Shown here: piece by piece, positions 3,075-36,625 of the stretch
Numbering within the stretch: the stretch's first letter is position 1
Layout: every line of letters begins with the position of its first letter
IMG/VR virus record: IMGVR_UViG_2681813232_000007
Length of the DNA stretch: 37,702 bases
Direction: 5' to 3' (one strand)
Source of the DNA: a virus
Lineage: Duplodnaviria; Heunggongvirae; Uroviricota; Caudoviricetes
Translations under genes and position numbers: made by a program
Notes under the pieces: model-generated
What the model was told of the DNA's origin: nothing
Seen by the model: the letters and a program-made list of their open reading frames with translations, nothing else
Database searches by the model: none

Positions 3075-3164
3075 TTTTCGAATTCTCCCCATTTTTGCTA
3101 AATTCACAATAATGATACCGCATTATTCCATTTTGCAAACTTAAAAGTTCTCCATTGCGAAGAA

Positions 3165-4265: not shown

Positions 4266-4747
4266 GACAGCAGCCCTCCCACCGTTTTACTGATATCGCT
4301 TAAGGCAGACGTTGCTGTGTCCTGCAGATTATTCAGTTGCGCACTGAGATCACCGAATATATCGGACAGGGATTCATCCACCCGTTTGAGCGACAGGGTG
4401 AACTCAATCCGGCGCGGCATACCGTCGCGGAAAAACTCCGTTTTAGTCTGATTCAGTCCCTCAATCACATACATGCCATAAATCGTGCCACTGCCTTCAA
4501 TCAGGGGCCATGCTTTCCCCTGTTCTGCCATCTGCTCCAGTGCCAGCAACGACAGCCTGCCACCTGTTATCTCCGGCATAAGAACACCGGAAAGCGTCAG
4601 CATGTCGTTGTCCGGTCCCAGAAACTGCGTGGACGGACATCGGTTTACCCGGCTGTTTGCCGCATGTCGCCAGCTGCGTTGATACTGCAGCTCCTGATAT
4701 GGCACGGTGCGCAGCATAAACACGTACAATCCCAGCACCATCATCAT
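4262..4747 (-). CDS. U: tail protein U
   Basis: 161 aa, size and position match P2 gpU; 4-nt overlap with D and T. Confidence 0.85.
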   Translation of the reverse strand: MMMVLGLYVFMLRTVPYQELQYQRSWRHAANSRVNRCPSTQFLGPDNDMLTLSGVLMPEITGGRLSLLALEQMAEQGKAWPLIEGSGTIYGMYVIEGLNQTKTEFFRDGMPRRIEFTLSLKRVDESLSDIFGDLSAQLNNLQDTATSALSDISKTVGGLLS

Positions 4748-10002: not shown

Positions 10003-10078
10003 AGTGGCGAACCTCCTGATTGGATTAGGCTTCGCCCTATGTTGAAGTGATTGTGCCTGACAAACAGCTAAGCGCAGT

Positions 10079-10096
10079 TGTGTCGTTATTCACACA
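10079..10096. promoter_or_regulatory. candidate Ogr-binding site (TGT-N12-ACA) of the late promoter upstream of FI
   Basis: TGTgtcgttattcacACA in the FI upstream intergenic region, centred ~85 nt from the FI start codon. Confidence 0.5.
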
Positions 10097-10144
10097 AAAT
10101 GACGGTATTTGTCTACTTGCAGGGATAATCAAAATAATGCTGAT

Positions 10145-10711
10145 TCAGGGGGATTCATTGCTCTTATTTGCCGGAAATTTTCTATAAATGGTAGAAACGC
10201 CTACATCAAAAATCAGTGCAATACGCTGTCTTGATTCTCCGGCCTCGAGTAAACGCCCAATCTGTGCCCACTGTTCGGTGGTCAACTTAGGACGGCGTCC
10301 ACCTACTCTGCCTTTGGCACGAGCTGCAGCCAGCCCTGCCATGGTATGTTCAACTATCAGTTCGCGTTCCATTTCAGCCAGGGCCCCCATGACATGAAAA
10401 AAGAAACGGCCCATTGGGGTGCTGGTATCAATACTGTCAGTCAGGCTTCGGAAATTCACGCCACGCTGACGCAACTCTTCTATCAGCGTAACAAGATGCC
10501 GCATACTGCGCCCCAACCTGTCCAGCTTCCAGACAACCAGAGTGTCTCCTGCCGATAGTGTCCTGAGCAGCTTTTTCAGCCCCGGTCTGTCGGACTTGGT
10601 GCCACTGATTTTATCCTCAAAAATCCGCTCACATCCCGCACAGTTCAGTGCATTGCGTTGCAAATCGGTGTTCTGGTCATTTGTTGACACGCGTACATAG
10701 CCAATAAGCAT
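10145..10711 (-). CDS. serine recombinase, DNA invertase (Gin/Pin/Cin/Hin family)
   Basis: MLIGYVRVSTNDQNTDLQRNAL... with catalytic Ser in the YVRVSTxDQ motif and C-terminal HTH (GVSTIYRKF); near-identical by recall to Mu Gin over the N-terminus; ORF-track N-terminal extension to 11026 rejected. Confidence 0.9.
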   Translation of the reverse strand: MLIGYVRVSTNDQNTDLQRNALNCAGCERIFEDKISGTKSDRPGLKKLLRTLSAGDTLVVWKLDRLGRSMRHLVTLIEELRQRGVNFRSLTDSIDTSTPMGRFFFHVMGALAEMERELIVEHTMAGLAAARAKGRVGGRRPKLTTEQWAQIGRLLEAGESRQRIALIFDVGVSTIYRKFPANKSNESP

Positions 10712-10738
10712 GATCATCCCCCTGAATAAAAACCGGAG

Positions 10739-11215
10739 ATGATGCCAGTTAGCCGTTATCTCTGCATTTTCATAAACGTTCAATTGGGAGAAGCGGCAAA
10801 ACGGGATGTCGGAACCGGTAATAATCAACTCCCGGACATGTCCGCATTTGGTATGTCGCGAAACGGACAAACTGCCTGGGATATTCTCCCAAATGGTATG
10901 ATTCGACAGGCTGGCACTGTGACACTGACACCAGTTGGTAACTTCAACGCGCAGGTGCTTGGTGGGGTGACGTACTACACCCATTACTACAGGGTTAATT
11001 TCCCCAGACAATTCCCAAATGCACAAATAGCAACGCTGGCAACACTAGCGAGTTACAGCTATTCGACCCAGGCAACAATGGCCGGAAAATCACTGGCAAC
11101 GCATCGCGATACTGATTCTGGCACTGACGTATCAAGAACGCGATTCACTGTGGCGTATACGACACCCAATCTCGGCGAAACACCGACACTGCATTTTGAA
11201 GCAATAGGATACTAA
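10739..11215 (+). CDS. alternative tail-fibre C-terminal variable segment (Sv'-like, promoterless until inversion)
   Basis: opposite orientation to H, homologous to the H variable-region start, ends in ...EAIGY like H ends ...IALGY; the 5' end of this ORF upstream of the crossover is probably not translated in this orientation. Confidence 0.6.
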   Translation: MMPVSRYLCIFINVQLGEAAKRDVGTGNNQLPDMSAFGMSRNGQTAWDILPNGMIRQAGTVTLTPVGNFNAQVLGGVTYYTHYYRVNFPRQFPNAQIATLATLASYSYSTQATMAGKSLATHRDTDSGTDVSRTRFTVAYTTPNLGETPTLHFEAIGY

Positions 11216-11217
11216 AT

Positions 11218-11451
11218 ATGGAGAATATCTATTTCAGCCCAACGACCGTTGGTTTTTATGTTTCTGAACAAGAGCGACCTGATGATGCGGTTGAAGTCTC
11301 GCCAGAGGTGGAGGCATTTTTGAGGGAGTGTGTTATCTGGGGAGCGGATACATTTAACGTAGAGCGAGATGCAGCAACGGTGACATATCCAACAGAACTG
11401 CTTGAATATGTCACCACCTACAACGCCCCCGTTAAATATCCTGCGGATTGA
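11218..11451 (+). CDS. tail-fibre assembly protein fragment (U'-like, apparently truncated)
   Basis: 77-aa ORF with a Tfa-like N-terminus (MENIYFSPTTVGFYVSE), lacking the conserved C-terminal Tfa region; convergent with and overlapping the 3' end of the other Tfa gene. Confidence 0.45.
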   Translation: MENIYFSPTTVGFYVSEQERPDDAVEVSPEVEAFLRECVIWGADTFNVERDAATVTYPTELLEYVTTYNAPVKYPAD

Positions 11452-11842
11452 CAGGCCATACGGGTTTTGCTGTATCAACGCGCATCAGCAAGACCCGGTA
11501 TTTTTTCCATTCAGATAACGCGGCGGTTTCTTCTGCCGTCGCGATTTCCGCATCAAAAGCATCCTGTCTCCAGGCTATTTCCTTATCAGCCATAGAACGC
11601 AATACCGTTCTTTTCTGTTCAGCCTGAATAATCTGTTGTTCAGCGGAGAGTGGCGGGATATCAATCCACGCAGGATTACCATTTTTATCAGCCCCCAGCG
11701 TTTTGCCTTGTGGCGCTACGCCTGTGTAAATTGCCATTGTTTCATCATCAACATCAACGCCATTTTCAGGCCATGAACCGGCGCTGATATATACCTCTTT
11801 TAGTGCTTTCGGATAGAAAGAGCCTTTATAAAATTTATTCAT
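11432..11842 (-). CDS. G: tail-fibre assembly chaperone (gpG/U-like)
   Basis: start set to MNKFYKGSFY (ATG at 11842, GGGG Shine-Dalgarno upstream) immediately after the H stop; C-terminal Tfa-like motif SEWKKYRVLLMRVDTAKPVWPVNP. Confidence 0.8.
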   Translation of the reverse strand: MNKFYKGSFYPKALKEVYISAGSWPENGVDVDDETMAIYTGVAPQGKTLGADKNGNPAWIDIPPLSAEQQIIQAEQKRTVLRSMADKEIAWRQDAFDAEIATAEETAALSEWKKYRVLLMRVDTAKPVWPVNPQDI

Positions 11843-11844
11843 TC

Positions 11845-13362
11845 TTAATACCCCAGCGCGATAAAACAACAATCTTCGGTGCCCTCTCCGGATGGCGACC
11901 AGTTCTGAATACTGATATGCGTTCTGCTGGCAATACGCACATTCATCGCGGCATTGTAGCCAGATGTTCCACGGTTTCCGGTCGCAAATAAGCCTGCATA
12001 GGGAAAAGCAAATGGTAAGGCATATCCAGCATCAGCTCCCTTTTGTGTTGCCACCGTTCCCCACTGCAACATAAGTTTCACCGGGTTTCCTGTCGTCGCA
12101 ATGCATGGAATGTAGATGTAGCCATTCCCTGACATCATTGACCTGAAGCTGTCTAAATCCAGTAACTTCGAGGCATTATCTGCTCCAACATCTCGTGTTG
12201 CGGCGGTCCCTAACTGGAGCGCATTTTGGAAGGCTGATACATCAGAAATATCAGCTCCATTAGCCGATTTCTGCATAGCTCCGGAGGCTTTATTTATCGT
12301 TTCGCCCAAACCAAGGTATGCGAGAAGACCAGCTACATCCTTTCCACTCAAATTAGTCAGCGTATTGTCCAGCGGTTGTTTACCTGCCAGCGCATTAAGC
12401 ATTGTCGTGGCAAAGTTCGGGTCATTCCCCAGCGCCGCAGCCAGTTCGTTCAGTGTATCCAGTGCAGCAGGTGCAGACCCCACCATTGCCGCAATTGCCG
12501 ATTTCACAAAAGCCGTGGTGGCAATCTGTGTATTGTTAACCGACTGTGCGGCAGTGGGGGCTGTTGGCGTTCCGGTGAGTGCCGGACTTAACAGCGGCGC
12601 TTTCAGTGCCAGCGCATTGTTAATGGTGGTACTGAATTTCGGGTCATTGTTTATGGCTGCGGCAATTTCTTTCAGCGTGTCCAGCGTGGCTGGCGCACCA
12701 TTAATAAGAGCCGTCAGTGCCACCTGAACAAACGCGGTGGTCGCAACCTGCGTGGTGTTATTCCCCGCCGCTGGCGTTGGCGCTTTGGGTGTCCCGGTAA
12801 ACATAGGACTTTCTTTGGGTGCATACTGTGAATGCGGGTCCGGTGCTGCAAGATGTTTTGCCATCTGATCATCCACGTACACCTTCAGCTCCAGTACCTT
12901 ATCATCCACATACTTGCGGGTTGCCAGCACGACGGCAGGGTCGATTTTCAGGGTGATATTGTCCGTGCTGCTGGTAATCAGCACCATGCGCACGGTCTGG
13001 GTGCGCCCGCTGCCTTCAGCCAGTTGCGGCTTATAGCTTTCCGGGCAGTTGCCCACGGCAATCAATGCCCCGGATTCATCAAACAGGCCCACTTCACGTA
13101 TCCACCAACCGCCCTCGTTTTCAGGGATCACCTGTTCAGCAATAATCTGGCTGCTGTTTTGCGGGTCGATATAGAGCATATTCAGCGCAGCCCGGCGTTT
13201 CTCATTTACCAGTGCAGTCTGCTTTGCGTCCGGCGTTGGTAATGTTCCGCCGCCATCGCCTACCGCCATATGGGTAATTTTTAACGGCACACCGAGCGCG
13301 GCGGCGCTGGCAAGTTTCGCCGCGCCAATATCCGTCAGCAGGGTATAAAATTTTGTGCTCAT
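11845..13362 (-). CDS. H: tail fibre protein H
   Basis: 505 aa; N-terminal ~300 aa resemble P2 gpH by recall (MAVGDGGG, ESYKP.LAEGSGR, LNELAAALGNDPNFATTM.NALAGKQP); C-terminal part variable. Confidence 0.9.
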   Translation of the reverse strand: MSTKFYTLLTDIGAAKLASAAALGVPLKITHMAVGDGGGTLPTPDAKQTALVNEKRRAALNMLYIDPQNSSQIIAEQVIPENEGGWWIREVGLFDESGALIAVGNCPESYKPQLAEGSGRTQTVRMVLITSSTDNITLKIDPAVVLATRKYVDDKVLELKVYVDDQMAKHLAAPDPHSQYAPKESPMFTGTPKAPTPAAGNNTTQVATTAFVQVALTALINGAPATLDTLKEIAAAINNDPKFSTTINNALALKAPLLSPALTGTPTAPTAAQSVNNTQIATTAFVKSAIAAMVGSAPAALDTLNELAAALGNDPNFATTMLNALAGKQPLDNTLTNLSGKDVAGLLAYLGLGETINKASGAMQKSANGADISDVSAFQNALQLGTAATRDVGADNASKLLDLDSFRSMMSGNGYIYIPCIATTGNPVKLMLQWGTVATQKGADAGYALPFAFPYAGLFATGNRGTSGYNAAMNVRIASRTHISIQNWSPSGEGTEDCCFIALGY

Positions 13363-13964
13363 GGATTCACTCTCATTGTGTCAATAACATGGACCGCCCC
13401 GCCTTCATGCGCGGTGCCGCCAGAAATAATTGTTTCGTTGATATACGGATAGATCGTGATTTCTTCACCAAGATAGCTGGCGGCCCCTACCCAGTGCGGG
13501 CCACTAGTTTGCAGATTGATGGACATGCCGATCATGTGACGGCTACATGGTTTGGCATCGCTTATCAGCCGCTCAAGTTCCAGATAGGTATCTTCAGTGA
13601 TGCCCTGGTCTTGCACGCCGATGTCCAGGCGAAACGTGCCCGGTGTTTCTCCAGTCTGCCACCACTCAATAATGCGTATCAGGAAGCCGAACGGCTCCAC
13701 CACCCGCCGCACGGCACTGGTGGTTCCTTTATGCTGATGAATATAAAAAGCATCCTTCACCACCTGGCGCTTGACGCTTTCTGTCCAGCCCTCGTCCCAG
13801 CGATCCACAGAGAACGCCCAGGCGAGATAAGGCAGGAAACTGACCGGACAGGTCGCCGGATCCCACAGGTCACGCAGCGGCACCTGCAAATCAGAAATCC
13901 CGCTGCACGCTTGCGCCAGTCGGCGCTCCAGTGGCGTTGAACCCGGTGGCAGCAGACTATTCAT
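13359..13964 (-). CDS. I: baseplate assembly protein I
   Basis: 201 aa, size and position match P2 gpI; overlaps H start by 4 nt. Confidence 0.85.
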   Translation of the reverse strand: MNSLLPPGSTPLERRLAQACSGISDLQVPLRDLWDPATCPVSFLPYLAWAFSVDRWDEGWTESVKRQVVKDAFYIHQHKGTTSAVRRVVEPFGFLIRIIEWWQTGETPGTFRLDIGVQDQGITEDTYLELERLISDAKPCSRHMIGMSINLQTSGPHWVGAASYLGEEITIYPYINETIISGGTAHEGGAVHVIDTMRVNP

Positions 13965-14865
13965 CCGTTCCTCCGTTGGTTACGCTCCACTGCGTACATG
14001 ATGCCGCCTGTGTTTTGTTCAGGACCACATCCGCCAGAGGGGAAGCCAGCTCCACACGCTGCACACCCTCAACATGCAGGGCGGCAAAGATGGCGCTACG
14101 GCGAATATCCCGACCAAGACGCGTCTGACTGGCGATGTACTTCTGCAGGCTGGCTTTTGCCGCTGCCATTACCGGCTCTGCTTCCGGTCCCGGATAAAGA
14201 AAAATGGTGGCTTCCACTCGGTACGGGATGATTTCTGCGCTGCGAACCGTCAGACGGTCAGCCACCGGGCGGACGTTCTCACTGTTCAGGGCGTTCTCCA
14301 CCACATCCAGCAAGTCTTTTTCTGCAGTTCCGTCGCCTTCGCGGCTAAGGACAGTCAGCACCACCTCTGCAGGTGCCGGGCTGGTTGCACTGGCATCCGC
14401 CACCCGACCGTCGGCGCTTCGGGCATGAAATTCATAAGCGGCAGTTGGCCCCGCAACCGAAAGCCCTTCAAAGGCTGCAGGCACACGCAGGCGTAACGCT
14501 TCATCGCTTTCCATCACAGCCGCAACGGGCGGCACAGCGTCATTATCAGCAGGCGTCACCGTCAGGCGTTTCACGTTGTAGTTGGCAGCGAGCTGGTCAA
14601 GATCGCCGCCCATCGCGTAAGCCACCATCACCGCCTGCGCGGCTTCGTTAATGCGCTGGCGCAGAAGCAACTCACGGTAAGCGTTCTCCTGCAACAATTT
14701 GGTGACTGGTTCAGATTCCAGTTCCAGCGTGCGGATCACTGCTTCCTGCTCATCTTTCGGATGAAGCGCCACAAATTCTGCCTTGCGTTCGGCAAGCAGC
14801 GTCTCAAAGTCCGGCACATCCACAATCTGCGGTGCAGGCAACTGCGAAAGGTCAATCACTGCCAT
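13957..14865 (-). CDS. J: baseplate protein J
   Basis: start set at MAVIDLSQLP (ATG at 14865, AGGAGC upstream); ORF-track start at 14904 is an extension; size then ~302 aa like P2 gpJ. Confidence 0.85.
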   Translation of the reverse strand: MAVIDLSQLPAPQIVDVPDFETLLAERKAEFVALHPKDEQEAVIRTLELESEPVTKLLQENAYRELLLRQRINEAAQAVMVAYAMGGDLDQLAANYNVKRLTVTPADNDAVPPVAAVMESDEALRLRVPAAFEGLSVAGPTAAYEFHARSADGRVADASATSPAPAEVVLTVLSREGDGTAEKDLLDVVENALNSENVRPVADRLTVRSAEIIPYRVEATIFLYPGPEAEPVMAAAKASLQKYIASQTRLGRDIRRSAIFAALHVEGVQRVELASPLADVVLNKTQAASCTQWSVTNGGTDE

Positions 14866-15211
14866 TCTCTGCTCCTGTTGATACGGAAAGGGACACAGGC
14901 ACACCGTTATTCCGCCGCCCGGTCAGCTCCACCACCATTGAACCGTCAAAATTGCTGTTAATAGTGATGGAATCCAGCGTCAGCCGTGGCTCCCAGCGAC
15001 TCAGTGCCACATACACAGCCGACATGACCTGCAGGCGTAACGCCGGATTTTGTGGCTGGTCTATCAGTGCCGACAGCAGGGAACCATATTCCCGACGGGC
15101 AATGCGGCTACCCTGCGGCGTCAGCAAAATGTCCCGCACCGACTGGCGCAGATGGTCAATATCAGTAATGGCTTTACCGCTGGTATTGTTCATCCCGCTA
15201 TAAAGCGTCAT
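14852..15211 (-). CDS. W: baseplate wedge protein W
   Basis: 119 aa, size and position match P2 gpW. Confidence 0.85.
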   Translation of the reverse strand: MTLYSGMNNTSGKAITDIDHLRQSVRDILLTPQGSRIARREYGSLLSALIDQPQNPALRLQVMSAVYVALSRWEPRLTLDSITINSNFDGSMVVELTGRRNNGVPVSLSVSTGAENGSD

Positions 15212-15786
15212 ACCGGGCCTCCGGTTGTGTCGCCGCCTTTCAGGACGCCAGTATGCTGATGTGCATCAACCACAATTCCGTTAGAACTCATTGCACCGCC
15301 GCCCTGGGTAACACCACCATTGATCACTACTTCGCTGTTAATGCGTGTGCGGTCAGCCTCCAGTACAAACTCACTGGTTTTCAGGGTGATGTTGTCGGCA
15401 GCTTCAATGACCATGGATTTGATTCCCCTGACATACCAGCGCCCGGTAGCGGGTTCGTATTCAAACCAGCCACCGTCAGGATGTTCTGTCACACAGGCGT
15501 CCACCGACGCCGACGGTGGTGCGAACTGATTCGAATATACAGCGGGCAGCGCAAAGGCGGTTTCCAGATTGCCGCCCAGACTCAGCAGCACCACCTGCTC
15601 ACCTTCCGATGGTCGCCACCATGTGCGGGCATTACCCGCGCGCAGCGTCAGCCAGTTAATCCAGTTGGTTTCAAGGTCGCCCGTTTTCACCCGACAAAGC
15701 CAGTGTTCCCGGTCCACTTCGGTGACTACACCAGTGCGGATCAGGTTGGTGATAAGGCGCATGATTTCGGTTAATTGTGCGTTCAT
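15208..15786 (-). CDS. V: baseplate spike/hub protein V
   Basis: 192 aa, N-terminus and overall sequence resemble P2 gpV by recall. Confidence 0.85.
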   Translation of the reverse strand: MNAQLTEIMRLITNLIRTGVVTEVDREHWLCRVKTGDLETNWINWLTLRAGNARTWWRPSEGEQVVLLSLGGNLETAFALPAVYSNQFAPPSASVDACVTEHPDGGWFEYEPATGRWYVRGIKSMVIEAADNITLKTSEFVLEADRTRINSEVVINGGVTQGGGAMSSNGIVVDAHQHTGVLKGGDTTGGPV

Positions 15787-15832
15787 AATTTAATCATGCC
15801 GAGATAAGATTGATAAAAAAACTCTTTAGTTT

Positions 15833-15850
15833 TGTGCCAGTTATGATACA
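15833..15850. promoter_or_regulatory. candidate Ogr-binding site (TGT-N12-ACA) of late promoter PV
   Basis: TGTgccagttatgatACA in the 100-bp gap between V and the divergent cargo operon, centred ~55 nt from the V start codon. Confidence 0.5.
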
Positions 15851-15886
15851 AAGTGCATTTACTCATGGACTAAATAAAGGATTCCT

Positions 15887-17146
15887 ATGTTTAGATTATC
15901 TAGTGTCAAGATTGAAGGTTTTTGGGGAAGACTAAATGCATCATGTTCATTTAATGAAGATGTAAATATTATTATTGGTCGAAATGGGACCGGTAAAACA
16001 ACCTTTATGAATATTCTTCACTCAGTTCTGGCATTAGAACTCGAATCACTAAATGAGAATAGTTTTGATAATGTAACAATAAAAATAAAAGAAGGAAGCA
16101 AAACTAAAACAATAAAAGTTGTGAGTAAATTTGACATAACTAAAGCTTTGCCTACGTTTGAATATACAATTTCTAGAAAGAAATATATTATCAGATCCTT
16201 TGAAGATCGTAGACTACCTATATATATGAGGAGAAAATATCAGGAAGACGTTGAAAAACTTAAGTTAGAGTTAGATAAATTAGTTGCTTTATCTTCTCTA
16301 TCAGTTTACCGACTTAGAAGCGGTGAAGATTTTGAAATCAGAGACAAATATGGCTCAAAATTAATCAACCCTGTTGATTACCGATTAGAACAATTATTGC
16401 AGAACCTAACAAAATATCAACTTTATTTATCACAAAGAGCTCGTGATGTTTCTGCAATATTACAGAAAGAGGTTCTTGCTTCTATTCTTTATAGTAAAGA
16501 AGATGGTATCGATGACACATTTAACTTTTCTTTTGATAAAGAAAAAGAACGTAGAAATTTAATAGCTGCATATTCTCAGCTTGGAGCTTTTGATAGTGAT
16601 GTCAGAAAGAAGATTAACTTTCACGTTGAATCTATTGCCAAAACATTTGAAGAATTACGACTTGCAGAAAAAAATAACAGAAATATTTTAAATGTAGATT
16701 ACAGATCATTTGAGGCATTACGAAAGACGCAAAGAATTATAAAGATGTCTTTAAAATCCGAGGAGAAAATAAAAAACATATTTCTTCCTATAAATCTATT
16801 TTTAGAAACATTACATGAGTTCATAACCGATAAAAAATTTAATTTTATCTCCGGTGAGCTAGTAATAGAAAACGAGCATGGGCCGATTAGCCATAGTAAT
16901 TTATCGTCTGGTGAAAAACAGCTATTAATTCTTTTTATTGAAACTTTGCTACAGCAAAACAAACCTTTCATCTATCTTACTGATGAACCAGAATTATCGC
17001 TACATATTGCATGGCAACGAAAAATAATACCTGCAATCAAACAACTTAATCCTAATGCGCAAATTATCGCCGCTACGCATTCACCAGAAGTGGCTTCTAA
17101 ATATCGAAATGCAATCTTTGATATGGAGAAATTGGTTCATGGATGA
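15887..17146 (+). CDS. ABC-type ATPase, candidate anti-phage protein (AriA/AbiLi-like)
   Basis: 419 aa; Walker A GRNGTGKTT (residues 31-39), signature-like LSSGEKQ, Walker B-like FIYLTDEPELSLH; AAGGA Shine-Dalgarno upstream; strongly AT-rich compared with flanking phage genes. Confidence 0.7.
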   Translation: MFRLSSVKIEGFWGRLNASCSFNEDVNIIIGRNGTGKTTFMNILHSVLALELESLNENSFDNVTIKIKEGSKTKTIKVVSKFDITKALPTFEYTISRKKYIIRSFEDRRLPIYMRRKYQEDVEKLKLELDKLVALSSLSVYRLRSGEDFEIRDKYGSKLINPVDYRLEQLLQNLTKYQLYLSQRARDVSAILQKEVLASILYSKEDGIDDTFNFSFDKEKERRNLIAAYSQLGAFDSDVRKKINFHVESIAKTFEELRLAEKNNRNILNVDYRSFEALRKTQRIIKMSLKSEEKIKNIFLPINLFLETLHEFITDKKFNFISGELVIENEHGPISHSNLSSGEKQLLILFIETLLQQNKPFIYLTDEPELSLHIAWQRKIIPAIKQLNPNAQIIAATHSPEVASKYRNAIFDMEKLVHG

Positions 17147-17990
17147 TTTCCATTATTCTGCCGAAGCAGAAAATGTAATGAATTTATTTTACCAAGCTGA
17201 AGCCATGGTTTATGTTGAAGGCCCAGATGATATTTGCTTTTGGGAAATCATCTTTAATAAAGCTAGTTCATTAAAGGTTGAAATCAAAGATGTTGGCGGC
17301 TGTGAAGAATTAAAAAAATATATTGATAGAGTTACTGATGAAGATCTTCAAATTATAATTGCATGTGATGCAGACTTCACTACATTTGAAAATGAGGAAA
17401 ACGCTGATAGTCGCATTGTAAAAACTTATGGGCACTCCATCGAAAACACGTTTATTGACAAAACAGGCATATATAAGGCAATAAAAACTCTAGGAAAATT
17501 ACCTCAAAAGATAATGAACGATGTCAACGTCGATTCTTGGACAGAAGACTTTTATACCAAAATGGAACCCCTAATAAAACTTGATATATACAATCATATT
17601 TATAGAAAAGGCATTTCAGTTATTGGTGACAGTGCAGATCGTTTCATGAAATCTAGAAAATCAAATGAAATTTGCGAGCAAAAAATCACGAGTTACAAAA
17701 ACACCATCATTGAAAAATTAGGTGTGGAACCAGATAACATCGATTCATCTTTCAAATCAAAATCGATAGAATACAGAAAGTGGCTTAGAGGTCATTTTCT
17801 TTTTTCTGCAGTACATAGGTACATTAGCACAACTGCAGAAAAAAATGGAAAAAAAGTATCCTTATCATATGAATCATTATATTCCAATTTAATGAATACA
17901 TTTGAATCCAATTTTACCAATACTCATATTGAGTTTAATCATTACCACGAAAAAATTAAAGCCATAAATATGCCACACGAAATGAAATAA
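17139..17990 (+). CDS. DUF4435/TOPRIM-like putative nuclease, candidate anti-phage effector (AriB/AbiLii-like)
   Basis: start set at MDDFHY (ATG at 17139) overlapping the upstream stop as ATGGATGA; conserved acidic motifs YVEGPDD and IIACDADF consistent with a TOPRIM Glu plus DxD; AT-rich. Confidence 0.65.
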   Translation: MDDFHYSAEAENVMNLFYQAEAMVYVEGPDDICFWEIIFNKASSLKVEIKDVGGCEELKKYIDRVTDEDLQIIIACDADFTTFENEENADSRIVKTYGHSIENTFIDKTGIYKAIKTLGKLPQKIMNDVNVDSWTEDFYTKMEPLIKLDIYNHIYRKGISVIGDSADRFMKSRKSNEICEQKITSYKNTIIEKLGVEPDNIDSSFKSKSIEYRKWLRGHFLFSAVHRYISTTAEKNGKKVSLSYESLYSNLMNTFESNFTNTHIEFNHYHEKIKAINMPHEMK

Positions 17991-18015
17991 GAAAAAATAC
18001 AGATGTATTTTTATA

Positions 18016-18462
18016 TTATGTAGATAACCATTCAAATAGGGTATCCTTGATTTGATAATATTCTTTATCGTGGATACCCAATAGCTTACGCTCTGCGTAA
18101 CGGACCTCAGGTCCTTTGCGACTGACGCGATCACGCAGGCCGTAGTGATGAACGCGGGCAATGCGCTGCACCTTGCCTTCAAACTGCACGCTGGCAGAAT
18201 CGGCGCTGGCGGCAGTTTTCAGGTATTTTGTGGTGCGCAGCTTCGCAAACATCTGACGTTTAATGCGGCCTTTTTTACTGCGTGCTGTTACCCGTCGCGG
18301 TTCATAGCTGCTGCCGTCAGGGTTGCGCTGCATCCTGATATTCTGCTGCTGTGTCCGGCGAAGTTCCTGCGCCAGTTGGCGCATCATACGGCTTCTTGCG
18401 GCTGGCTCCAGATTCGCCAGCAAGGCACTCAGCCAGTCGTCCACCTTCTGCAATTCAGCCAC
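18016..18462 (-). CDS. S: tail completion protein S
   Basis: 148 aa, resembles P2 gpS by recall (DSWLSALLANLEPAAR..., FAKLRT.YLK, VQFEGKVQRIARVH.YGLRDRV.RKGP). Confidence 0.85.
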   Translation of the reverse strand: MAELQKVDDWLSALLANLEPAARSRMMRQLAQELRRTQQQNIRMQRNPDGSSYEPRRVTARSKKGRIKRQMFAKLRTTKYLKTAASADSASVQFEGKVQRIARVHHYGLRDRVSRKGPEVRYAERKLLGIHDKEYYQIKDTLFEWLST

Positions 18463-18907
18463 GTTTCACCGTCCACATTTCTTCAGGTTCATCGGGTTCC
18501 GCTACAGCTTCAACGCTGGACACTGTGCCGTCAGTGCTGACCAGCACACGTTCCGTCAGTTGCAGGTTAAGGCTGATATCACAGACATCGTTGCGCAGAA
18601 TATCCACCTCAAAGGTGAATAACTTTTCCCGTAAAGCGGGATTATTGATGGCATCGGGCTGGTTATCACGCAGCCACAGCAAAACCGGGGCCATCAACAG
18701 ATTCTGGTCACCACTGAAATCCTCTATCACCACGTTCAGGGTGTAGCGGTACTCCCATGACATGGAGCTGGCCCCCGTGGCAACCAGCGAACCGTTATCC
18801 ACAAACAGATGCAGTTTGTCCGGGTTATTACGGACATAAGGCACTGCTTTATTAAGGGCGTGGCGCAGGGATTGTGGTTTGTTCACTGTTTCGCTCCTGA
18901 CACGCAA
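18455..18907 (-). CDS. R: tail completion protein R
   Basis: 150 aa, resembles P2 gpR by recall (FVDNGS, YTLNV...DF.GD..LL..PVL.WLR.NQPD). Confidence 0.85.
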   Translation of the reverse strand: MRVRSETVNKPQSLRHALNKAVPYVRNNPDKLHLFVDNGSLVATGASSMSWEYRYTLNVVIEDFSGDQNLLMAPVLLWLRDNQPDAINNPALREKLFTFEVDILRNDVCDISLNLQLTERVLVSTDGTVSSVEAVAEPDEPEEMWTVKRG

Positions 18908-19139
18908 TAATCATGTCCACTTTGTCTGCACAGACCGCCCAGGCGGCCTCCGTTTCATCCAGCAATGCGTTCAGATCACCGTTAGTGCGCGGCGCTGTCT
19001 GATCCAGCCGACACGGCGTCACTCGCGGACAACCACTGACGGTAAGCTGCACCTCCGGTGAGTGCCGGACGTTCCCGCAGCCGGATAATGTCAACAGGCA
19101 AAGGAGTATCAGCCCAGCGGCGTAAATCCTCGTTCTCAC
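18852..19139 (-). CDS. lysC: outer-membrane spanin lipoprotein (LysC, Rz1-like), nested out of frame in lysB
   Basis: 95 aa with signal peptide and lipobox LTLSGC; starts inside the lysB ORF in another frame and extends past its stop. Confidence 0.75.
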   Translation of the reverse strand: MRTRIYAAGLILLCLLTLSGCGNVRHSPEVQLTVSGCPRVTPCRLDQTAPRTNGDLNALLDETEAAWAVCADKVDMIIACQERNSEQTTIPAPRP

Positions 19140-19410
19140 GTTTCAGTTCTTCGATCCGGCGTTGTCGTTGTCTCAGCTGTGCGCTGGTCTGTTCTGCTTC
19201 GGCATAGAGCCGCGCCTGCTCCCGGTTATTAGTTTCAGTCAGAATGGACAGGCTGATAAGCTGGCTGTTGCTCTTTGCCAGTGCCTGACTTTTGCTCTGC
19301 AGCTCGTCTGCCTGCGTGCTGATGGTCTGGCTGGCATCAGCCAGCCGCCACGTCTGCCAGCCCAGCGCCGCCAGTAATAACGCCAGCACAACCAGCAGCA
19401 ACCGGTTCAT
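18982..19410 (-). CDS. lysB: inner-membrane spanin (LysB, Rz-like)
   Basis: 142 aa, N-terminal transmembrane helix then coiled-coil region. Confidence 0.8.
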   Translation of the reverse strand: MNRLLLVVLALLLAALGWQTWRLADASQTISTQADELQSKSQALAKSNSQLISLSILTETNNREQARLYAEAEQTSAQLRQRQRRIEELKRENEDLRRWADTPLPVDIIRLRERPALTGGAAYRQWLSASDAVSAGSDSAAH

Positions 19411-19784
19411 GCTGCTACCTGTTGCGCCATCTGATTACGGGTGATCCAGAAGGCAATAACGGTCAGTAGATAAAAGACCAGGGTAATAGCCCACCCCGTC
19501 CAGGCGAGACTTACGACAATCAGCAATCGCATCACCCAGCTGATAAATACGTTTTCTTTTCGGGTAATGGTCTTCAGCAAAGATGCCCTCAACTCCTGCC
19601 AGAGCGAGCCATTCTTAATTAACGCAGCCAGTGCTACCGGAATTACCGCCCATGTCAGTAAACAGGCTACCCAAACGCCGGACGCTGCCAGTACCGGAAA
19701 AATCCCCTGCGGATACACCATTGCTGCAATTAACAGCGCCATCCATAACATCAGAAACAGCCCGCTGATTAATTTCTTTTTCAT
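19407..19784 (-). CDS. lysA: lysis regulatory membrane protein LysA
   Basis: start set at MKKKLISG (ATG at 19784, overlapping K stop as TGAAATGA); about four hydrophobic helices. Confidence 0.75.
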   Translation of the reverse strand: MKKKLISGLFLMLWMALLIAAMVYPQGIFPVLAASGVWVACLLTWAVIPVALAALIKNGSLWQELRASLLKTITRKENVFISWVMRLLIVVSLAWTGWAITLVFYLLTVIAFWITRNQMAQQVAA

Positions 19785-19785
19785 T

Positions 19786-20298
19786 TCAGTTTGCTCCCTG
19801 TAAACACCAGGCCATCTCCCGCGCACGGCGGTTATCCAGCCCCTGATTAAACACACCTTTCACATAAACCCAGCGCGGTAACTGTCGGCACGCATCCGCC
19901 CAGCGCCGCTGATTGAGCAATTTCACCAGTGTGGAACTGCAGGCATTGCTAGTTCCCACGTTGAAGGCAAACGACACCGTAGCGTCATACACCTTCTGTG
20001 GTGGCTGTTGCTTCACACACCTTTCCAGTGCCCGCTCCACACGCAGCACGTTGGAGATCAGCCCTTCTGCTGCCTGTCGTTCCGTGATTGTTTTGCCGGG
20101 AATGACGCCCGATGTATTACCAATGCCGTCAGTCCAGACACCCGCGCTGCACTGATACGGCTGCAGACGACAGCCTTCGTAATCGGCAATCAGTTTCAGC
20201 CCTTCCACGGACGTATGAAGCTGCTGAAAGCCCGGCAGCGTGGCAGCAATAGCCAGCACGGCCCCGACAAGGCAGCGTTTAACGACTGATGGATTCAT
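19786..20298 (-). CDS. K: endolysin (lysozyme family)
   Basis: 170 aa; lysozyme-like core, position between holin and lysA as in P2; hydrophobic N-terminal stretch suggests a signal-anchor. Confidence 0.85.
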   Translation of the reverse strand: MNPSVVKRCLVGAVLAIAATLPGFQQLHTSVEGLKLIADYEGCRLQPYQCSAGVWTDGIGNTSGVIPGKTITERQAAEGLISNVLRVERALERCVKQQPPQKVYDATVSFAFNVGTSNACSSTLVKLLNQRRWADACRQLPRWVYVKGVFNQGLDNRRAREMAWCLQGAN

Positions 20299-20494
20299 AG
20301 TCCTCCCGCGAGATCTGCCCGTCGCGCAGAAGCTGGTAGGCTTTGTGTTTGTAGTACCAGTTGATAGCCAGCATCAGCACACCAATCATCAGGCCGCCCA
20401 GCGTTGAGATATCCTTGATGGACAAATCGCCCAGCCAGGCCAGCACGACGGCGATGCAATACGTGATAAAGGCGCTGATTCGCTCAAGCGTCAT
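20279..20494 (-). CDS. Y: holin
   Basis: 71 aa, two hydrophobic helices and a charged C-terminus; immediately upstream of the endolysin. Confidence 0.8.
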   Translation of the reverse strand: MTLERISAFITYCIAVVLAWLGDLSIKDISTLGGLMIGVLMLAINWYYKHKAYQLLRDGQISREDYESISR

Positions 20495-20497
20495 AAT

Positions 20498-20701
20498 TCA
20501 GTCCCATAGCTGGACGGTCTGCACGGTGGTGGTTGCCGGAATGTCCGGCAGCTCCACCTGCAGCCCGTGAGGTAAAAAGGGGCCGTATTCGGCAAGCCCC
20601 GGATTTGCCTTCAGTACCTGCTCCGTGACACCCTGCGTGCGCCCGTAATGACGCCAGCAAAGCGCGTCCACCGTGTCATACTGATGCGCACGCACTTTCA
20701 T
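20498..20701 (-). CDS. X: tail protein X
   Basis: 67 aa, size and position match P2 gpX. Confidence 0.8.
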   Translation of the reverse strand: MKVRAHQYDTVDALCWRHYGRTQGVTEQVLKANPGLAEYGPFLPHGLQVELPDIPATTTVQTVQLWD

Positions 20702-21165
20702 CAGATAAGCTCCACTGTGCAGTGCGGCGCATCCTGCACCCGGCTGATGGCCCAGCGGGCGTCACGCCACAAATCACCGCTTGCTTCCGCCAGTTCCTCG
20801 CCTCGCTTCACACCGGACGCCGTGGCGTCATAGTCCTGATAACGCTCGTTGAGCATGGCGCGTGCCCAGCAGTAAACCGCGTTGAAATAGTGCTGAATGC
20901 GCTCACTTTTGCCGTCCAACTGTTCCGCCGGAACCTCAGCCAGCGACGCATACCCCAGCATCTGCTGACGTCTGCGAAACTCATACAGCTCTGCGTTGAC
21001 CTCCGAAATTGCCGACAGCGCAACCTGCTTTAAACGCGGCTGCGTCACCGTGCCGTCAGTGCGCATCACACTGCGAAACTCCGACAGGTCCACATCAGGC
21101 CAGAACGGCGTATTTCTGATGATTTCCGCCTGTTCCGGTGCCTGTTCTGGCGCAACAAACTTCAT
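20701..21165 (-). CDS. L: head completion/stabilisation protein L
   Basis: start set at MKFVAPEQ (ATG at 21165) because AGGAGA lies 7 nt upstream; ORF-track start 21228 is an extension. Confidence 0.8.
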   Translation of the reverse strand: MKFVAPEQAPEQAEIIRNTPFWPDVDLSEFRSVMRTDGTVTQPRLKQVALSAISEVNAELYEFRRRQQMLGYASLAEVPAEQLDGKSERIQHYFNAVYCWARAMLNERYQDYDATASGVKRGEELAEASGDLWRDARWAISRVQDAPHCTVELI

Positions 21166-21260
21166 GCTGCTTTCTCCTGAAATAAAGGGCGGTGGACGGG
21201 GTTTTGATGTGGCAGAGCCTTTCGCCACCCCGTGCCGCCCGTGCGCGGGGGCACGTTCTG

Positions 21261-21911
21261 TCAGCGGCTGTCATTGCGCAGTCTGCGCTCCAGCTGCTGT
21301 TTGTCTTTTTTCACGCCACAGCGGGGATCGAGCTGTAACGCATGGTTGAGATGATTAAGGGCGGAAGCCGGATTGCTTTCACTCAGGACTGCGCCAATCG
21401 CTTTATGCAGACGCGCCCGTGACTGGTCCGGCATATCCAGATCGTCTGTCAGTTCCAGCGTCTGCAGCAACAGATCAGCATCAAAGCCGATGGCGGCAAG
21501 CATTGCGCTCTGCGCTGCGTCTGCCATTTCCTCTGCCAGCACGGTCTGCACGTTGCGGTTACCCAGCGGCATCACCCAGCCATGACGCAGGGCATGACGC
21601 CCGATCTCCAGCGCCCCGGCATAATCTCCGGCATCAATGCGCCACAGCATCACGTACATCAGCACGTCATCCTGCTGTGCGCCTCCGGCAGCCAGGACAC
21701 CCTCCGCCCAGGCGGCGTACTTCGGCAGCAGCTCCACTTTGATTTCCGCTTTTTTGACCGTGGACTGAACGCCCTTGAGACGGCGGCGGTCTTCCGCCAG
21801 TTGCAGTAGCATCAGGTCATAGCCCGACGCGTGGCGAACACTGCCGCCCTCGCGGGCGGCCTGTTCAGCCTGAACGCGCAGGCGATGCTGCCGTGCGGGA
21901 CTCAGGCTCAT
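21261..21911 (-). CDS. M: terminase small (endonuclease) subunit M
   Basis: 216 aa, position between N and L as in P2. Confidence 0.8.
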   Translation of the reverse strand: MSLSPARQHRLRVQAEQAAREGGSVRHASGYDLMLLQLAEDRRRLKGVQSTVKKAEIKVELLPKYAAWAEGVLAAGGAQQDDVLMYVMLWRIDAGDYAGALEIGRHALRHGWVMPLGNRNVQTVLAEEMADAAQSAMLAAIGFDADLLLQTLELTDDLDMPDQSRARLHKAIGAVLSESNPASALNHLNHALQLDPRCGVKKDKQQLERRLRNDSR

Positions 21912-21914
21912 GGT

Positions 21915-22970
21915 TTATGCTCCGGCTTCTGCGGCGGTGCTGAAGTCGCCAATCTGGATGTTTTCCACCAGTGCTGCGCAGCGGTAGTCCTCAACCACAT
22001 AGGCTTCGTTAACGGATTCAAAGTTTTCAATCCGGTCACGTTTCGGGTTGTCGATAACTGAACGGCGGCGGGTGTCTTCCTGCCAGTAGATGGACAGGTT
22101 ATCCAGACGGGTGATCAGCAGCGCATTCGGCGGGAAGAACGGCGCACGCACGGCCTGCAGGCCACCCATGCGTTTCTGGCTGATGATCATATCGGCAGCC
22201 AGTTTTTCACTGTTTTCCTGCTCTTTGTTGACCAGCGGGAAATACTTATCAGACAACAGTTCACGACCGCAAATCACCACCAGATCGTCATCGTCCTGGT
22301 AGACCACGTCGATAAGCTCATTAACGGCATCCATCACCACGGCGTCCAGGTTGGCATATTCGCCACCTTTACCGACTTTCACCGCGCCCGGTGTGGTTTC
22401 ACCGCCCGTGGTGGTGCTGCCCATGACGTGATCCGGTGCATCCTCACGGATTTTCTGCAGCCAGCCTTTATTCACATCCTGCAGCAGCGGGTTTTCGCTA
22501 CGGTTGGAGGTTTTCGCACGCTTCACGCCGTTAAAGCCGATCATGATGCGGTCCAGTGCCTGACGTTTCACGATGGCGTCACGGATACGCACCTGAAAAT
22601 CCTGAAACTTCGCCCACAGGTCCAGCTTCGCGTAGGTCAGCACCGTGTCAAAGTTGGTCTGCTCGCATTTATATTCCACATCGACCATCAGCGTCGGATC
22701 GACAGGTTCACGCTCTTTCGCGGTGGTATCAGTGGTTCCGGCAATGGTGCTGCCAACTCCCAACCCCAGCAGCTGACCGGACTGCTCAGTCACTGGCGTG
22801 ACGTTAATCAGCGTCAGGAAAGCGGCGGACTGCTGGATCTGGTCTTCCAATGTCTGCTGCACGGACGGCTCTACGGTGAACTTGCTGGACAGTTCTTCAA
22901 CTGCCACACCGTTCAGACGCGCCAGTTGCTGCAGGTAAGCGTTAAAAGCAAAGCGGGTATTCTTCTTCAT
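21915..22970 (-). CDS. N: major capsid protein N
   Basis: 351 aa, extensive resemblance to P2 gpN by recall (FNAYL, KFTVEPSV.QTL, DLVVI.GR.LL.DKYFP.VNKEQ.NSE.LAAD.IISQKR). Confidence 0.92.
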   Translation of the reverse strand: MKKNTRFAFNAYLQQLARLNGVAVEELSSKFTVEPSVQQTLEDQIQQSAAFLTLINVTPVTEQSGQLLGLGVGSTIAGTTDTTAKEREPVDPTLMVDVEYKCEQTNFDTVLTYAKLDLWAKFQDFQVRIRDAIVKRQALDRIMIGFNGVKRAKTSNRSENPLLQDVNKGWLQKIREDAPDHVMGSTTTGGETTPGAVKVGKGGEYANLDAVVMDAVNELIDVVYQDDDDLVVICGRELLSDKYFPLVNKEQENSEKLAADMIISQKRMGGLQAVRAPFFPPNALLITRLDNLSIYWQEDTRRRSVIDNPKRDRIENFESVNEAYVVEDYRCAALVENIQIGDFSTAAEAGA

Positions 22971-22986
22971 CAGGTTTTGTGCTCCA

Positions 22987-23820
22987 TCAGCAATTGGTCA
23001 GAGTGTCAGCGGGGGCGTTACCGCCTGTTGCACGCTGGCGGTAGTCCTGGCGGCTGTCTTCTTGGCTCAGCTTGTCCACCAGTTCGTTAAAGGCGGTCTG
23101 CTGTGCCTGCAGGGCTGTCTCCAGCTCAGACAGGCGCTCTTCCTGCTCAGACAGGGATTTTTCGGTGCGCGCACTCAGGTTCTGCTGCTCAGTGGCGACC
23201 AGTTCCACGGCCTTATGCACATCAGAGAACCGGGCGTCATCGGACTGCTCTTTTTTGGTGAACAGCGCCGTGACACGGGCAAACAGGGACGGCTTGTCCT
23301 CCTGGATTTCTTCCAGTTCGATCACCGTTTCCTCTGCGGCTGTAAAGAGATTGGCGGGATTCTGCTTGCGGTTTGCCAGCGGGTTATGGGCTGCACTGGC
23401 GCTGAATGTCAGCATTTCAGTGCCCAGACTGGCAGGGTCATCAGTGGCTGCCAGGCCGACCAGGTAGGCTTTGCCCGTATCAGCAAACTTCGGGCTGACT
23501 TCCATAGAGGTGAATAATTTCTGGCCTTTTTTCACCAGTTCCACCAGGGACTCCGTTGGCTCAACGTCGGCATACAGCGCCATCTTGCCTGCCAGCGGAC
23601 CTTCCGTGATTTCTTCAGCAAACAGCGCCGTCACCTTACCGTAGCGGTTAAAGGTGCTGTCCGGCAGATAAGACTTGATGTGCTCAAGGTTAATCAGCGC
23701 GGTATACACCGCCGGGTTGTAGCTGGCTGCCATCTGTTCCAGCCATTCACGCTGGATTTCGCGTCCGTCGGTGGTGGCACCTTCCACCCCGATGCGAAAA
23801 CGCTTTGCTTTCACTGTCAT
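22987..23820 (-). CDS. O: capsid scaffolding protein O
   Basis: 277 aa, N-terminus FRIGVEG.T.DGR...INLEH like P2 gpO by recall. Confidence 0.9.
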   Translation of the reverse strand: MTVKAKRFRIGVEGATTDGREIQREWLEQMAASYNPAVYTALINLEHIKSYLPDSTFNRYGKVTALFAEEITEGPLAGKMALYADVEPTESLVELVKKGQKLFTSMEVSPKFADTGKAYLVGLAATDDPASLGTEMLTFSASAAHNPLANRKQNPANLFTAAEETVIELEEIQEDKPSLFARVTALFTKKEQSDDARFSDVHKAVELVATEQQNLSARTEKSLSEQEERLSELETALQAQQTAFNELVDKLSQEDSRQDYRQRATGGNAPADTLTNC

Positions 23821-23898
23821 GAGCCGTGCTCCGTTAGAAAAAACTTACTGGAGCCTTATGGTTGCGGTGATGGGGGCAGTGAAACAATGCGCGGTATT

Positions 23899-23916
23899 TG
23901 TACCGACAACCACACA
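23899..23916. promoter_or_regulatory. candidate Ogr-binding site (TGT-N12-ACA) in the divergent O/P late promoter region
   Basis: TGTaccgacaaccacACA between O (minus) and P (plus); centre ~55 nt from the P start codon and ~87 nt from the O start codon. Confidence 0.5.
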
Positions 23917-23962
23917 AACCGCAGGCGGGGAAAGCCTTCATTCAAGGTTGTAGGTTTGTGCC

Positions 23963-36567: not shown

Positions 36568-36625
36568 CAATGTATGTTTCATAGTAATCACACATTGATT
36601 ACTGGTTACATATACAGTTAAATTT

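Follow-up and report, generated by a model that had tools for sequence, protein, structure and literature searches.

The DNA analyzed here (the window, 37,702 nucleotides) belongs to a P2-family prophage (Peduoviridae) of E. coli. Its late genes fall into four operons (P-Q, O to S, V to G, and FI to D), and its early region resembles that of phage 186 (cI, apl/cox, cII, fil, and tum), whereas its late structural genes are nearer to those of SopEPhi/SEN8 and the Klebsiella Gege-type phages than to those of 186. Directly downstream of D, where the activator genes of P2 and 186 are also found, an intact gene on the minus strand (2856 to 3074) encodes a 72-amino-acid C4 zinc-finger protein whose translation contains the motif CX2CX22CX4C. 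This protein matches the Ogr_Delta family (Pfam PF04606; E = 5e-22; 78 bits, with a cutoff of 26.3) and is 51% identical to P2 Ogr and 54% identical to 186 B over all 72 residues. An Ogr/Delta-family activator is thereby encoded in cis, by the same element that carries the sites described below.

An initial annotation had placed three TGT-N12-ACA elements, taken to be Ogr/Delta-type activator sites, ahead of the late genes, and exact matches are present at all three positions. The site of the FI operon (the pF equivalent) occupies 10079 to 10096 on the minus strand (TGTGTCGTTATTCACACA; gene-sense strand, ttTGTGTGAATAACGACACAac), and that of the V operon (pV) occupies 15833 to 15850, also on the minus strand (TGTGCCAGTTATGATACA; gene-sense strand, ttTGTATCATAACTGGCACAaa). 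The third, at 23899 to 23916 (TGTACCGACAACCACACA), is common to the divergent genes O (minus strand) and P (plus strand), and its dyad symmetry extends into the flanks (TTGTACCGACAACCACACAA). The three sites cover the starts of all four late operons. Their centers lie 85.5 nt (FI), 55.5 nt (V), 87.5 nt (O), and 55.5 nt (P) from the respective start codons, in agreement with the distances first proposed (~55 nt for V and P and ~86 nt for FI and O).

The motif is not enriched in the window as a whole, where 14 matches stand against 9.51 ± 3.09 in dinucleotide shuffles, close to the nine chance occurrences anticipated by the initial annotation. The clustering that it had called far above chance is borne out: the late intergenic gaps (10003 to 10144, 15787 to 15886, and 23821 to 23962; 384 bp in total) contain 3 matches where 0.09 to 0.11 are expected (Poisson probability of at least three, 1.4e-4 to 2.2e-4). 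The probability that each gap holds at least one match is 2.7e-5, and that of all three matches falling in a 5-nt positional slot is ~3e-9. A window-wide scan of the kind suggested there as a check gave 0.26 matches per kb in coding DNA (nine wholly inside coding sequence, in 34.9 kb) versus 7.8 per kb in the late gaps.

To follow these sites in related phages, IMG/VR relatives were found by single-protein queries. All of them are close (89 to 100% protein identity), so the independence of these observations comes from how diverse the upstream sequences are and not from phylogenetic depth. The expected slot is filled at all 80 of the FI loci and at 79 of 80 for both V and P; that is, the TGT and ACA triplets keep their distances at all but two of the 240 loci, and the spacers and flanks diverge, giving 19 distinct site sequences at V, 36 at FI, and 10 at P. 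Upstream of V, every one of 44 unique sequences has a match centered 54.5 to 57.5 nt from the ATG in flanks that are otherwise unrelated, and the V loci hold 79 matches in the expected slot versus 2 elsewhere in 141 kb. All 70 unique FI sequences have a match 78.5 to 85.5 nt from the ATG. The P site lies exactly 55.5 nt from the ATG in 45 of 46 unique sequences (10 distinct spacers), and the distance from the same site to the O ATG is 85.5 to 88.5 nt. Three other genera likewise keep the triplets at the same distances with divergent spacers and flanks: the late sites account for 3 of the 6 matches in 25 kb of Salmonella phage SEN8 (Felsduovirus), 3 of the 4 in 38 kb of Klebsiella phage ST258-KPC3phi16.1 (Gegevirus), and 3 of the 6 in the Klebsiella phage ST15-OXA48phi14.1 (Gegavirus). 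Conservation in SEN8, the two Klebsiella phages, and the IMG/VR loci is of the kind expected under purifying selection. As to the fixed architecture that had been suggested, the ~86 nt seemingly shared by FI and O is not constant, given the range of 78.5 to 85.5 nt at FI in relatives; it is the distance from site to −10 element that is fixed.

When the motif is extended to TTGTRYSR-N4-YSRYACAA, the three late sites are the only matches in the window at up to one mismatch; some of the sequences behind this motif are almost the same as that of the window, which makes the scan descriptive and not an independent test. None of the coding-region TGT-N12-ACA matches fits the extended half-site, nor does a match upstream of int (36575 to 36592). 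A further match, absent from the initial annotation, overlies the P start codon (23957 to 23974). We do not consider it functional and take it to have arisen by chance or to be specific to a lineage: its right half misfits the extended half-site, it is lost in many close relatives (TTTGGGCC variants), and it is missing from SEN8 and the two Klebsiella phages. That the three late sites are themselves functionless, chance matches to a six-base motif in AT-rich intergenic DNA would suit so short a motif, the lack of global enrichment (14 matches versus 9.5 expected), and this nonfunctional fourth match right beside P, but such clustering has probabilities of ~2e-4 (at least three in 384 bp) and ~3e-9 (a 5-nt slot), and the triplets recur at the same distance in 238 of 240 related loci and three other genera in which spacers or whole flanks differ, so that the conservation data effectively refute this explanation and leave it with a negligible probability.

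The sites can be placed against those of P2 (pP, pO, pV, and pF; activator Ogr) and 186 (p12, pV, pJ, and p32; activator B), for which experimental site and start positions were taken from RefSeq feature tables and secondary statements. P2 has the same operon layout, with the activator gene after D and one site between divergent P and O, and 186 has one annotated B site for the divergent p12 and pV. The O/P site of the window aligns column for column with the annotated site at 3057 to 3087 in P2 (pO and pP) and with the 186 B site at 3798 to 3817 (pV and p12); the counterparts of the FI site in the alignment are the site annotated at pF in P2 and the B site of pJ in 186. The suggestion that a single palindrome may serve both O and P thus has precedent in the records themselves, which read "activator binding site; pO, pP promoters" for P2 and "activation of pV and p12 promoters" for 186. 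Site centers in P2 lie 55.5 to 58.5 nt from annotated starts, and the 186 pJ site lies 58.5 nt from its mapped start. The annotated P2 sites read TGT-N12-CCA or, at pV, are irregular, and the 186 sites also read TGT-N12-CCA, whereas those of the window are perfect TGT-N12-ACA dyads; the specificity of the window activator may therefore differ in detail from that of the P2 and 186 activators.

Palindromes are a generic operator shape, and we considered whether these could be operators of another regulator, such as host CRP (TGTGA-N6-TCACA), a phage repressor, or a Cox/Apl-type silencer of late genes. The FI site does contain TGTGA-N6-ACACA, one mismatch from the CRP core. However, this 16-bp core with N6 spacing is approached at FI only; the V and O/P sites lack the CRP-like register, as do most of the FI variants seen in relatives (e.g., TGTGCCATT...), and the conserved spacing is N12, whereas a CRP core implies N10. 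For regulators of this sort in general, the alignment with annotated Ogr/B sites of P2 and 186 and the presence of an Ogr homologue in cis argue against the idea, which we regard as very unlikely. The three palindromes are, very probably, binding sites of the prophage's own Ogr-like activator, located ~55 nt upstream of four late promoters. The assignment to the Ogr/Delta type, as first proposed, is supported by the Ogr_Delta gene in cis, the alignment to P2 and 186 sites, the conserved triplets, and the lack of a sigma-70-like late promoter, which is described next.

A consensus scan of the three late gaps revealed no sigma-70 consensus promoter in the late orientation and no recognizable −35 element, as in P2. 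All starts in the window are predictions, transferred by homology together with a −10 rule. For pF, the predicted −10 hexamer CAACAT (10044 to 10039, minus strand) puts the +1 at ~10032, 55.5 nt from the site center, and yields a predicted leader of ~30 nt with a Shine-Dalgarno sequence (GGAGG) at 10012 to 10016. This hexamer aligns with its P2 homologue GAAAAT, whose T(−7) precedes the annotated P2 start (17626) by 7 nt; in 19 diverged sequences the block gAACATAgG stands at a constant distance from the site, and a Shine-Dalgarno sequence is found in 19 of 19 diverged FI leaders. For pO, the predicted hexamer AACCAT (23863 to 23858, minus strand) puts the +1 at ~23851 to 23852, and position 23852 is the counterpart, in the alignment, of the start annotated for P2 O (3127). 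The predicted leader of ~32 nt includes the Shine-Dalgarno sequence GGAG (23829 to 23832), and the pO block CCTTATGGTTGC is kept in all four lineages with a short O-P spacer.

The other two promoters differ in where their predicted starts fall. At pV, the predicted hexamer CATGAT (15798 to 15793, minus strand) puts the +1 on the A of the V ATG (15786), so that the V mRNA is predicted to be leaderless; in the P2 record, too, transcription of the V operon begins with the first coding base of V. Of 22 unique relatives, 19 have A(−11) and T(−7), counted from the ATG, and 16 of 17 diverged V upstream regions have no Shine-Dalgarno sequence. Cassettes at the V hotspot seem to swap all of the DNA up to the V ATG and yet always to keep the site at −55.5 along with A(−11) and T(−7). 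At pP, the predicted hexamer TAGGTT (23951 to 23956, plus strand) aligns with its homologue TAGCCT in P2 and with TAGCCT in 186. The window base opposite the annotated P2 start (3016) is the A of the P ATG (23963), which is the predicted +1 of a leaderless P-Q mRNA. A(−11) and T(−7) are invariant here in 10 unique relatives. From site center to homology-transferred start, the distance is 55.5 to 56.5 nt for all four promoters, consistent with the ~55-nt rule, here on inferred starts. That rule concerns the transcription start and not the start codon; tied to the former, it implies that the V and P mRNAs (55.5 nt from site to ATG) are leaderless and that FI and O (~86 nt) have leaders of ~30 nt.

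Collectively, these data point to a model of late control that we hold with high confidence, comprising an Ogr/B-type activator, three sites, four promoters, and the predicted starts. Ogr is known to bind inverted repeats centered near −55 and to require the RNA polymerase alpha subunit (PMC3152322). In the window phage, each late operon would have a weak sigma-70 promoter that lacks a usable −35 element and depends on the phage-encoded 72-amino-acid Ogr/B-type activator. The activator would bind the inverted repeat TTGTRYSR-N4-YSRYACAA (invariant core, TGT-N12-ACA), centered ~55.5 nt upstream of each start, and, by analogy with P2 Ogr, would recruit RNA polymerase through the alpha subunit. 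Three sites could serve four promoters because the symmetric O/P site lies 55.5 to 56.5 nt from both of the divergent starts, pO and pP. Transcription would begin at ~10032 (minus strand) for FI, 15786 (minus strand) for V, ~23851/2 (minus strand) for O, and 23963 (plus strand) for P; FI and O would have ~30-nt leaders with Shine-Dalgarno sequences, and the A of the start codon would be the first base of the V mRNA and, in this lineage, of the P mRNA as well. For this phage, the sequence comparison directly shows the motifs with their positions and conservation, the activator gene, and the homology to the annotated P2 and 186 sites; from these we infer that the protein binds, activates, and contacts the alpha subunit, and where exactly the transcripts start.

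The reading of P departs from P2 and 186. P2 P has a 23-nt leader with the Shine-Dalgarno sequence GAGG, and the leader of the 186 terminase gene (orf12) is ~23 nt, whereas the P ATG of the window lies on the predicted +1 of pP, so the terminase mRNA is probably leaderless in this lineage. As for the start codon itself, an in-frame TAG lies four codons upstream of the ATG at 23963, and the P N terminus is collinear with that of P2 P from residue 3. A downstream alternative start was set aside in view of the upstream stop and also because the next methionine, residue 17, is within an N-terminal segment that can be aligned with P2 P (window residues 10 to 15, DPRRQA). We lean toward the view that the 22- to 23-nt P leader is missing in the window phage, SEN8, and the Klebsiella Gegevirus and Gegavirus phages, such that one palindrome would drive a leadered O mRNA and a leaderless P-Q mRNA. 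It is, by the same modest degree, probable that half of the late operons, those of P and V, would rely on leaderless translation initiation. A literature search on leaderless P or terminase mRNA, and on the mapping of late promoters in phages of the Fels-2/SopEPhi type, returned nothing relevant.

It is unusual for an essential terminase gene to be expressed from a leaderless mRNA, and a weak AGG lies 8 nt before the P ATG in the window. Both facts would fit a scheme in which the site at 23899 to 23916 activates only pO, and P-Q is transcribed from another start, for example, further upstream in the O-proximal DNA, to give a leadered P mRNA. However, the GTAG..TTG block that contains the pP −10 element does not vary among P2, 186, and the four lineages with a short spacer, and its unchanged distance from the site puts the +1 on the ATG. 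Moreover, many relatives have ATG in place of the AGG (TATGTT), and in the 142-bp O-P gap there is neither a second match to the extended motif nor a sigma-70 consensus promoter. We therefore consider a separate P-Q start unlikely, although less so than the involvement of another regulator, and favor activation of both pO and pP from the shared site.

Similar elements have been described beyond P2 and 186. The Delta-dependent promoters of satellite P4 (Psid and PLL) have a published TGT-N12-ACA consensus at position −55 and belong to the Ogr/Delta system (PMC3931495; PMC3152322). The window shares this core, this position, and the activator family, and it contains no P4-type element. In P4 promoters there is, in addition, a second Delta site that is promoter-proximal. 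In Stenotrophomonas phage Smp131, a single palindromic TGT-N12-ACA-like element (nt 4381 to 4398, both strands) was assigned to PP' and PO' (PMC3931495); the sites of this phage, which has a distant host and rearranged tail operons, are predicted, and its paper does not include an analysis of spacing or transcripts.

The initial finding holds, but most of it is textbook biology, and it leaves the established picture of P2 late control unchanged. New relative to the P2 and 186 records is that the P ATG coincides with the +1 predicted for pP; a terminase mRNA without a leader, as predicted here, would add one modest, testable case to the small number of natural leaderless mRNAs known from enterobacteria. 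In addition, the late circuit can now be annotated with confidence in a prophage lineage common in E. coli, Klebsiella, and Salmonella, from the single activator gene and its three sites to the four promoters and their predicted +1 positions. The six-base motif has been sharpened to TTGTRYSR-N4-YSRYACAA with a strict rule on distance, and in this form it is specific enough to annotate P2-like prophages automatically, along with the P4-like satellites that hijack the same activators. As a separate observation, hotspots of defense genes directly adjoin the activator sites, with PARIS beside V and an invertase region beside FI; the cargo beside pV and pF in P2 is instead orf30 and fun(Z).

The Ogr/Delta-type activator motif TGT-N12-ACA occurs at 10079 to 10096 upstream of FI, 15833 to 15850 upstream of V, and 23899 to 23916 between O and P, as the initial annotation had reported. 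A genome-wide scan returned 14 matches in the window where 9.5 ± 3.1 were expected (about nine by chance had been claimed); the bare motif is therefore not globally enriched, and nine of the matches are wholly enclosed by coding sequence. The proposed excess in late intergenic DNA was borne out, with three matches in the 384 bp of the three gaps (10003 to 10144, 15787 to 15886, and 23821 to 23962) against about 0.1 expected (P = 1.4e-4 to 2.2e-4 for three or more; P = 2.7e-5 for at least one in every gap). The distances first given from site center to ATG also hold (FI, 85.5 nt; V, 55.5 nt; O, 87.5 nt; P, 55.5 nt), and the three-site observation is confirmed. A fourth match over the P start codon (23957 to 23974), overlooked earlier, is gone from many relatives. 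Another match (TGTTTCATAGTAATCACA, 36575 to 36592) occupies the short gap that precedes int, with 66.5 nt between its center and the int ATG; this match departs from the extended half-site described below and is present in the near-identical vB_EcoM-813R9 (L001), the sole phage compared.

The late genes on the minus strand follow the P2 gene order, as judged from open reading frames and the annotation of relatives: an ogr-like gene (2856 to 3074, minus strand); D, U, T, E, FII, and FI (8830 to 10002); an invertase and tail-fiber switch region between FI and H; H, I, J, W, and V (15208 to 15786); an insert of two plus-strand genes between V and S; and S to L, M, N, and O (22987 to 23820). P (23963 to 25729) and Q come next, on the plus strand; beyond Q is a 186-like early region (tum, A, cII, cox/apl, and cI), followed by int. 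The leftmost 2.7 kb is host DNA with a permease gene. An 801-bp query around the O-P gap was 100% identical to Escherichia phage vB_EcoM-813R9, a close match to the window, and 92 to 99% identical to Klebsiella and Salmonella Peduoviridae.

Three such relatives, Salmonella phage SEN8 (Felsduovirus; 25 kb searched) and Klebsiella phages ST258-KPC3phi16.1 (Gegevirus; 38 kb) and ST15-OXA48phi14.1 (Gegavirus; 34 kb), contained six, four, and six motif matches, respectively, three in each being the late sites. These lie 78.5 to 81.5 nt from FI, 56.5 to 57.5 nt from V, 85.5 to 87.5 nt from O, and 55.5 nt from a conserved P ATG; one Klebsiella record (L005) annotates P from a second ATG three codons downstream. 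When the P, V, and FI proteins were used as queries to retrieve IMG/VR loci, a match occupied the expected slot at 79 of 80 V, 80 of 80 FI, and 79 of 80 P loci, and V loci had two matches in 141 kb outside it. Counted as unique upstream sequences, these were 44/44 for V (54.5 to 57.5 nt from center to ATG; 19 distinct sites), 70/70 for FI (78.5 to 85.5 nt; 36 distinct sites), and 45/46 for P (exactly 55.5 nt; 10 distinct sites). Such conservation excludes chance as the origin of the three matches. V-upstream sequences are mutually unalignable except at the site and two positions; what is constrained there is motif and spacing, not inherited sequence.

Across 82 flank-distinct site sequences, TGT is preceded by T in 81 and ACA is followed by A in 59, giving a half-site of TTGT-R-Y-S-R. 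With at most one mismatch, TGTRYSR-N4-YSRYACA matches just the three sites in the window, a descriptive result because the pattern was partly built from near-identical sequences. Were the elements CRP sites instead, all three should fit; the FI site alone does so, and in some variants only. The Ogr/Delta-type interpretation is supported by the 72-aa product of the ogr-like gene, an Ogr/Delta zinc finger (CX2CX22CX4C) 51% identical to Ogr of P2 and 54% to B of 186. Ogr binds inverted repeats centered near -55 of P2 late promoters, and it depends on contacting the alpha subunit of RNA polymerase (PMC3152322). The TGT-N12-ACA consensus and four late operons have been summarized, and in Smp131 a single palindrome is assigned to both PP' and PO' (PMC3931495). 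We infer activator binding, activation, and the exact starts in the window, where the mechanism would be that of P2, with three sites driving four promoters.

The window system is one more example of the late-control circuit known from P2 and 186. Annotated in the P2 RefSeq record are one "activator binding site; pO, pP promoters" (3057 to 3087; starts at 3016 for P and 3127 for O), a pV site (10239 to 10266) with the operon start at the first coding nucleotide of V, and a pF site (17555 to 17583) with starts at 17626 to 17628, 24 to 26 nt before FI. In the 186 record, p12 and pV, which diverge, are assigned a single B-protein site, and the pJ site is 58.5 nt away from the mapped pJ start. Thus, one palindrome serving two divergent promoters and a spacing of 55 nt between site and V start codon, both proposed initially, were already on record. 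The P2 sites at 3057 to 3087 and 17555 to 17583 and the 186 sites at 3798 to 3817 and 14091 to 14110 read TGT-N12-CCA, in contrast to the published consensus, and the P2 pV site is irregular, whereas the window sites are perfect ACA dyads. The perfect ACA half-sites of the window are a lineage variant, which we did not find in the literature searched. Half-site and activator possibly co-vary, the activators being just 51 to 54% identical.

A consensus scan of the three gaps for sigma-70-type promoters in late orientation found none, as expected if the promoters are activator dependent. The -11 A and -7 T are the two strongest positions of the sigma-70 -10 hexamer; both are present relative to the ATG in 19 of 22 unique 20-nt sequences upstream of V and in 10 of 10 upstream of P, and +1 was therefore placed on the A of each ATG. 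Of 17 diverged V-upstream sequences, 16 lack a Shine-Dalgarno sequence; all 19 FI-upstream sequences have one (in the window, GGAGG at 10012 to 10016), and that of O is GGAG at 23829 to 23832. In alignment, the O/P site matches the shared P2 and 186 sites, with an invariant CACACAA half-site, and the P-side hexamer (TAGGTT, 23951 to 23956; TAGCCT in P2 and 186) is equally far from the site in all three. Of the annotated P2 starts, that of O aligns to 23852 and that of P to the A of the window P ATG; P2 and 186 (in its counterpart gene) then have an additional 22 to 23 nt, including GAGG, ahead of their own ATG. The window P ATG, at 23963, is the earliest possible start, an in-frame TAG lying four codons upstream, and collinearity of the protein with P2 P begins at residue 3. 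P-Q could instead be transcribed from an unrecognized start upstream, but the homologous hexamer favors a start at the P ATG. The terminase (P) mRNA of the window lineage is thus predicted to be leaderless, a feature of which the literature searched gave no report. At FI, the site aligns with those of P2 pF and 186 pJ, and CAACAT with P2 GAAAAT, in which T(-7) precedes the annotated 17626 start by 7 nt; from this alignment the FI-operon +1 is predicted near 10032, which puts it 55.5 nt away from the site center.

Among the V loci (L087 to L166), phages that share at least 96% V-protein identity with the window have nonhomologous DNA in the 120 nt upstream, up to the ATG, forming 17 groups at <85% identity. 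All variants keep TTGT-N12-ACAA 54.5 to 57.5 nt from the ATG. With the site and -10 positions retained in nonhomologous DNA, the variable hotspot cassette appears to include the entire pV promoter; we found no account, in the literature searched, of cassettes replacing everything up to the V ATG with the site in register. In the window, the S-V hotspot holds a PARIS-type defense pair (15887 to 17990, plus strand) divergent from V: AriA (15887 to 17146; PADLOC E = 5.7e-40) and AriB (17055 to 17990; E = 2.8e-24; Pfam DUF4435). The promoter of this pair must fit, together with pV, into the 100-bp gap (15787 to 15886), and a TATGAT (15842 to 15847) lies within the spacer of the V site; speculatively, activator binding late in infection could therefore interfere with PARIS transcription.

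Two further defense cargos are likely: a PD-Lambda-1 homologue between cI and int (34891 to 36567, plus strand; E = 3e-120; T5orf172/MUG113 domains) and a Hypoth_Ymh protein adjoining Q in the cos-proximal hotspot (26815 to 27969, minus strand; weak PD-Lambda-3_B and HEPN-like matches). A Hin/Cin-type DNA invertase (about 10145 to 10708, minus strand; Resolvase and HTH_7 domains) is located immediately upstream of the FI site, beside an alternative tail-fiber tip (10739 to 11215) and a partial assembly gene (11218 to 11451), both on the plus strand; candidate 14-nt crossover repeats (11032 to 11045 and 12045 to 12058) are 93% complementary. In the vB_EcoM-813R9 record (ON470620; 5185 to 6261 against window 10000 to 13362), the prophage stops within tail-fiber gene H, adjoining host ybjT; that deposit is without G, the invertase region, FI to D, and ogr, and the window has the whole left arm.
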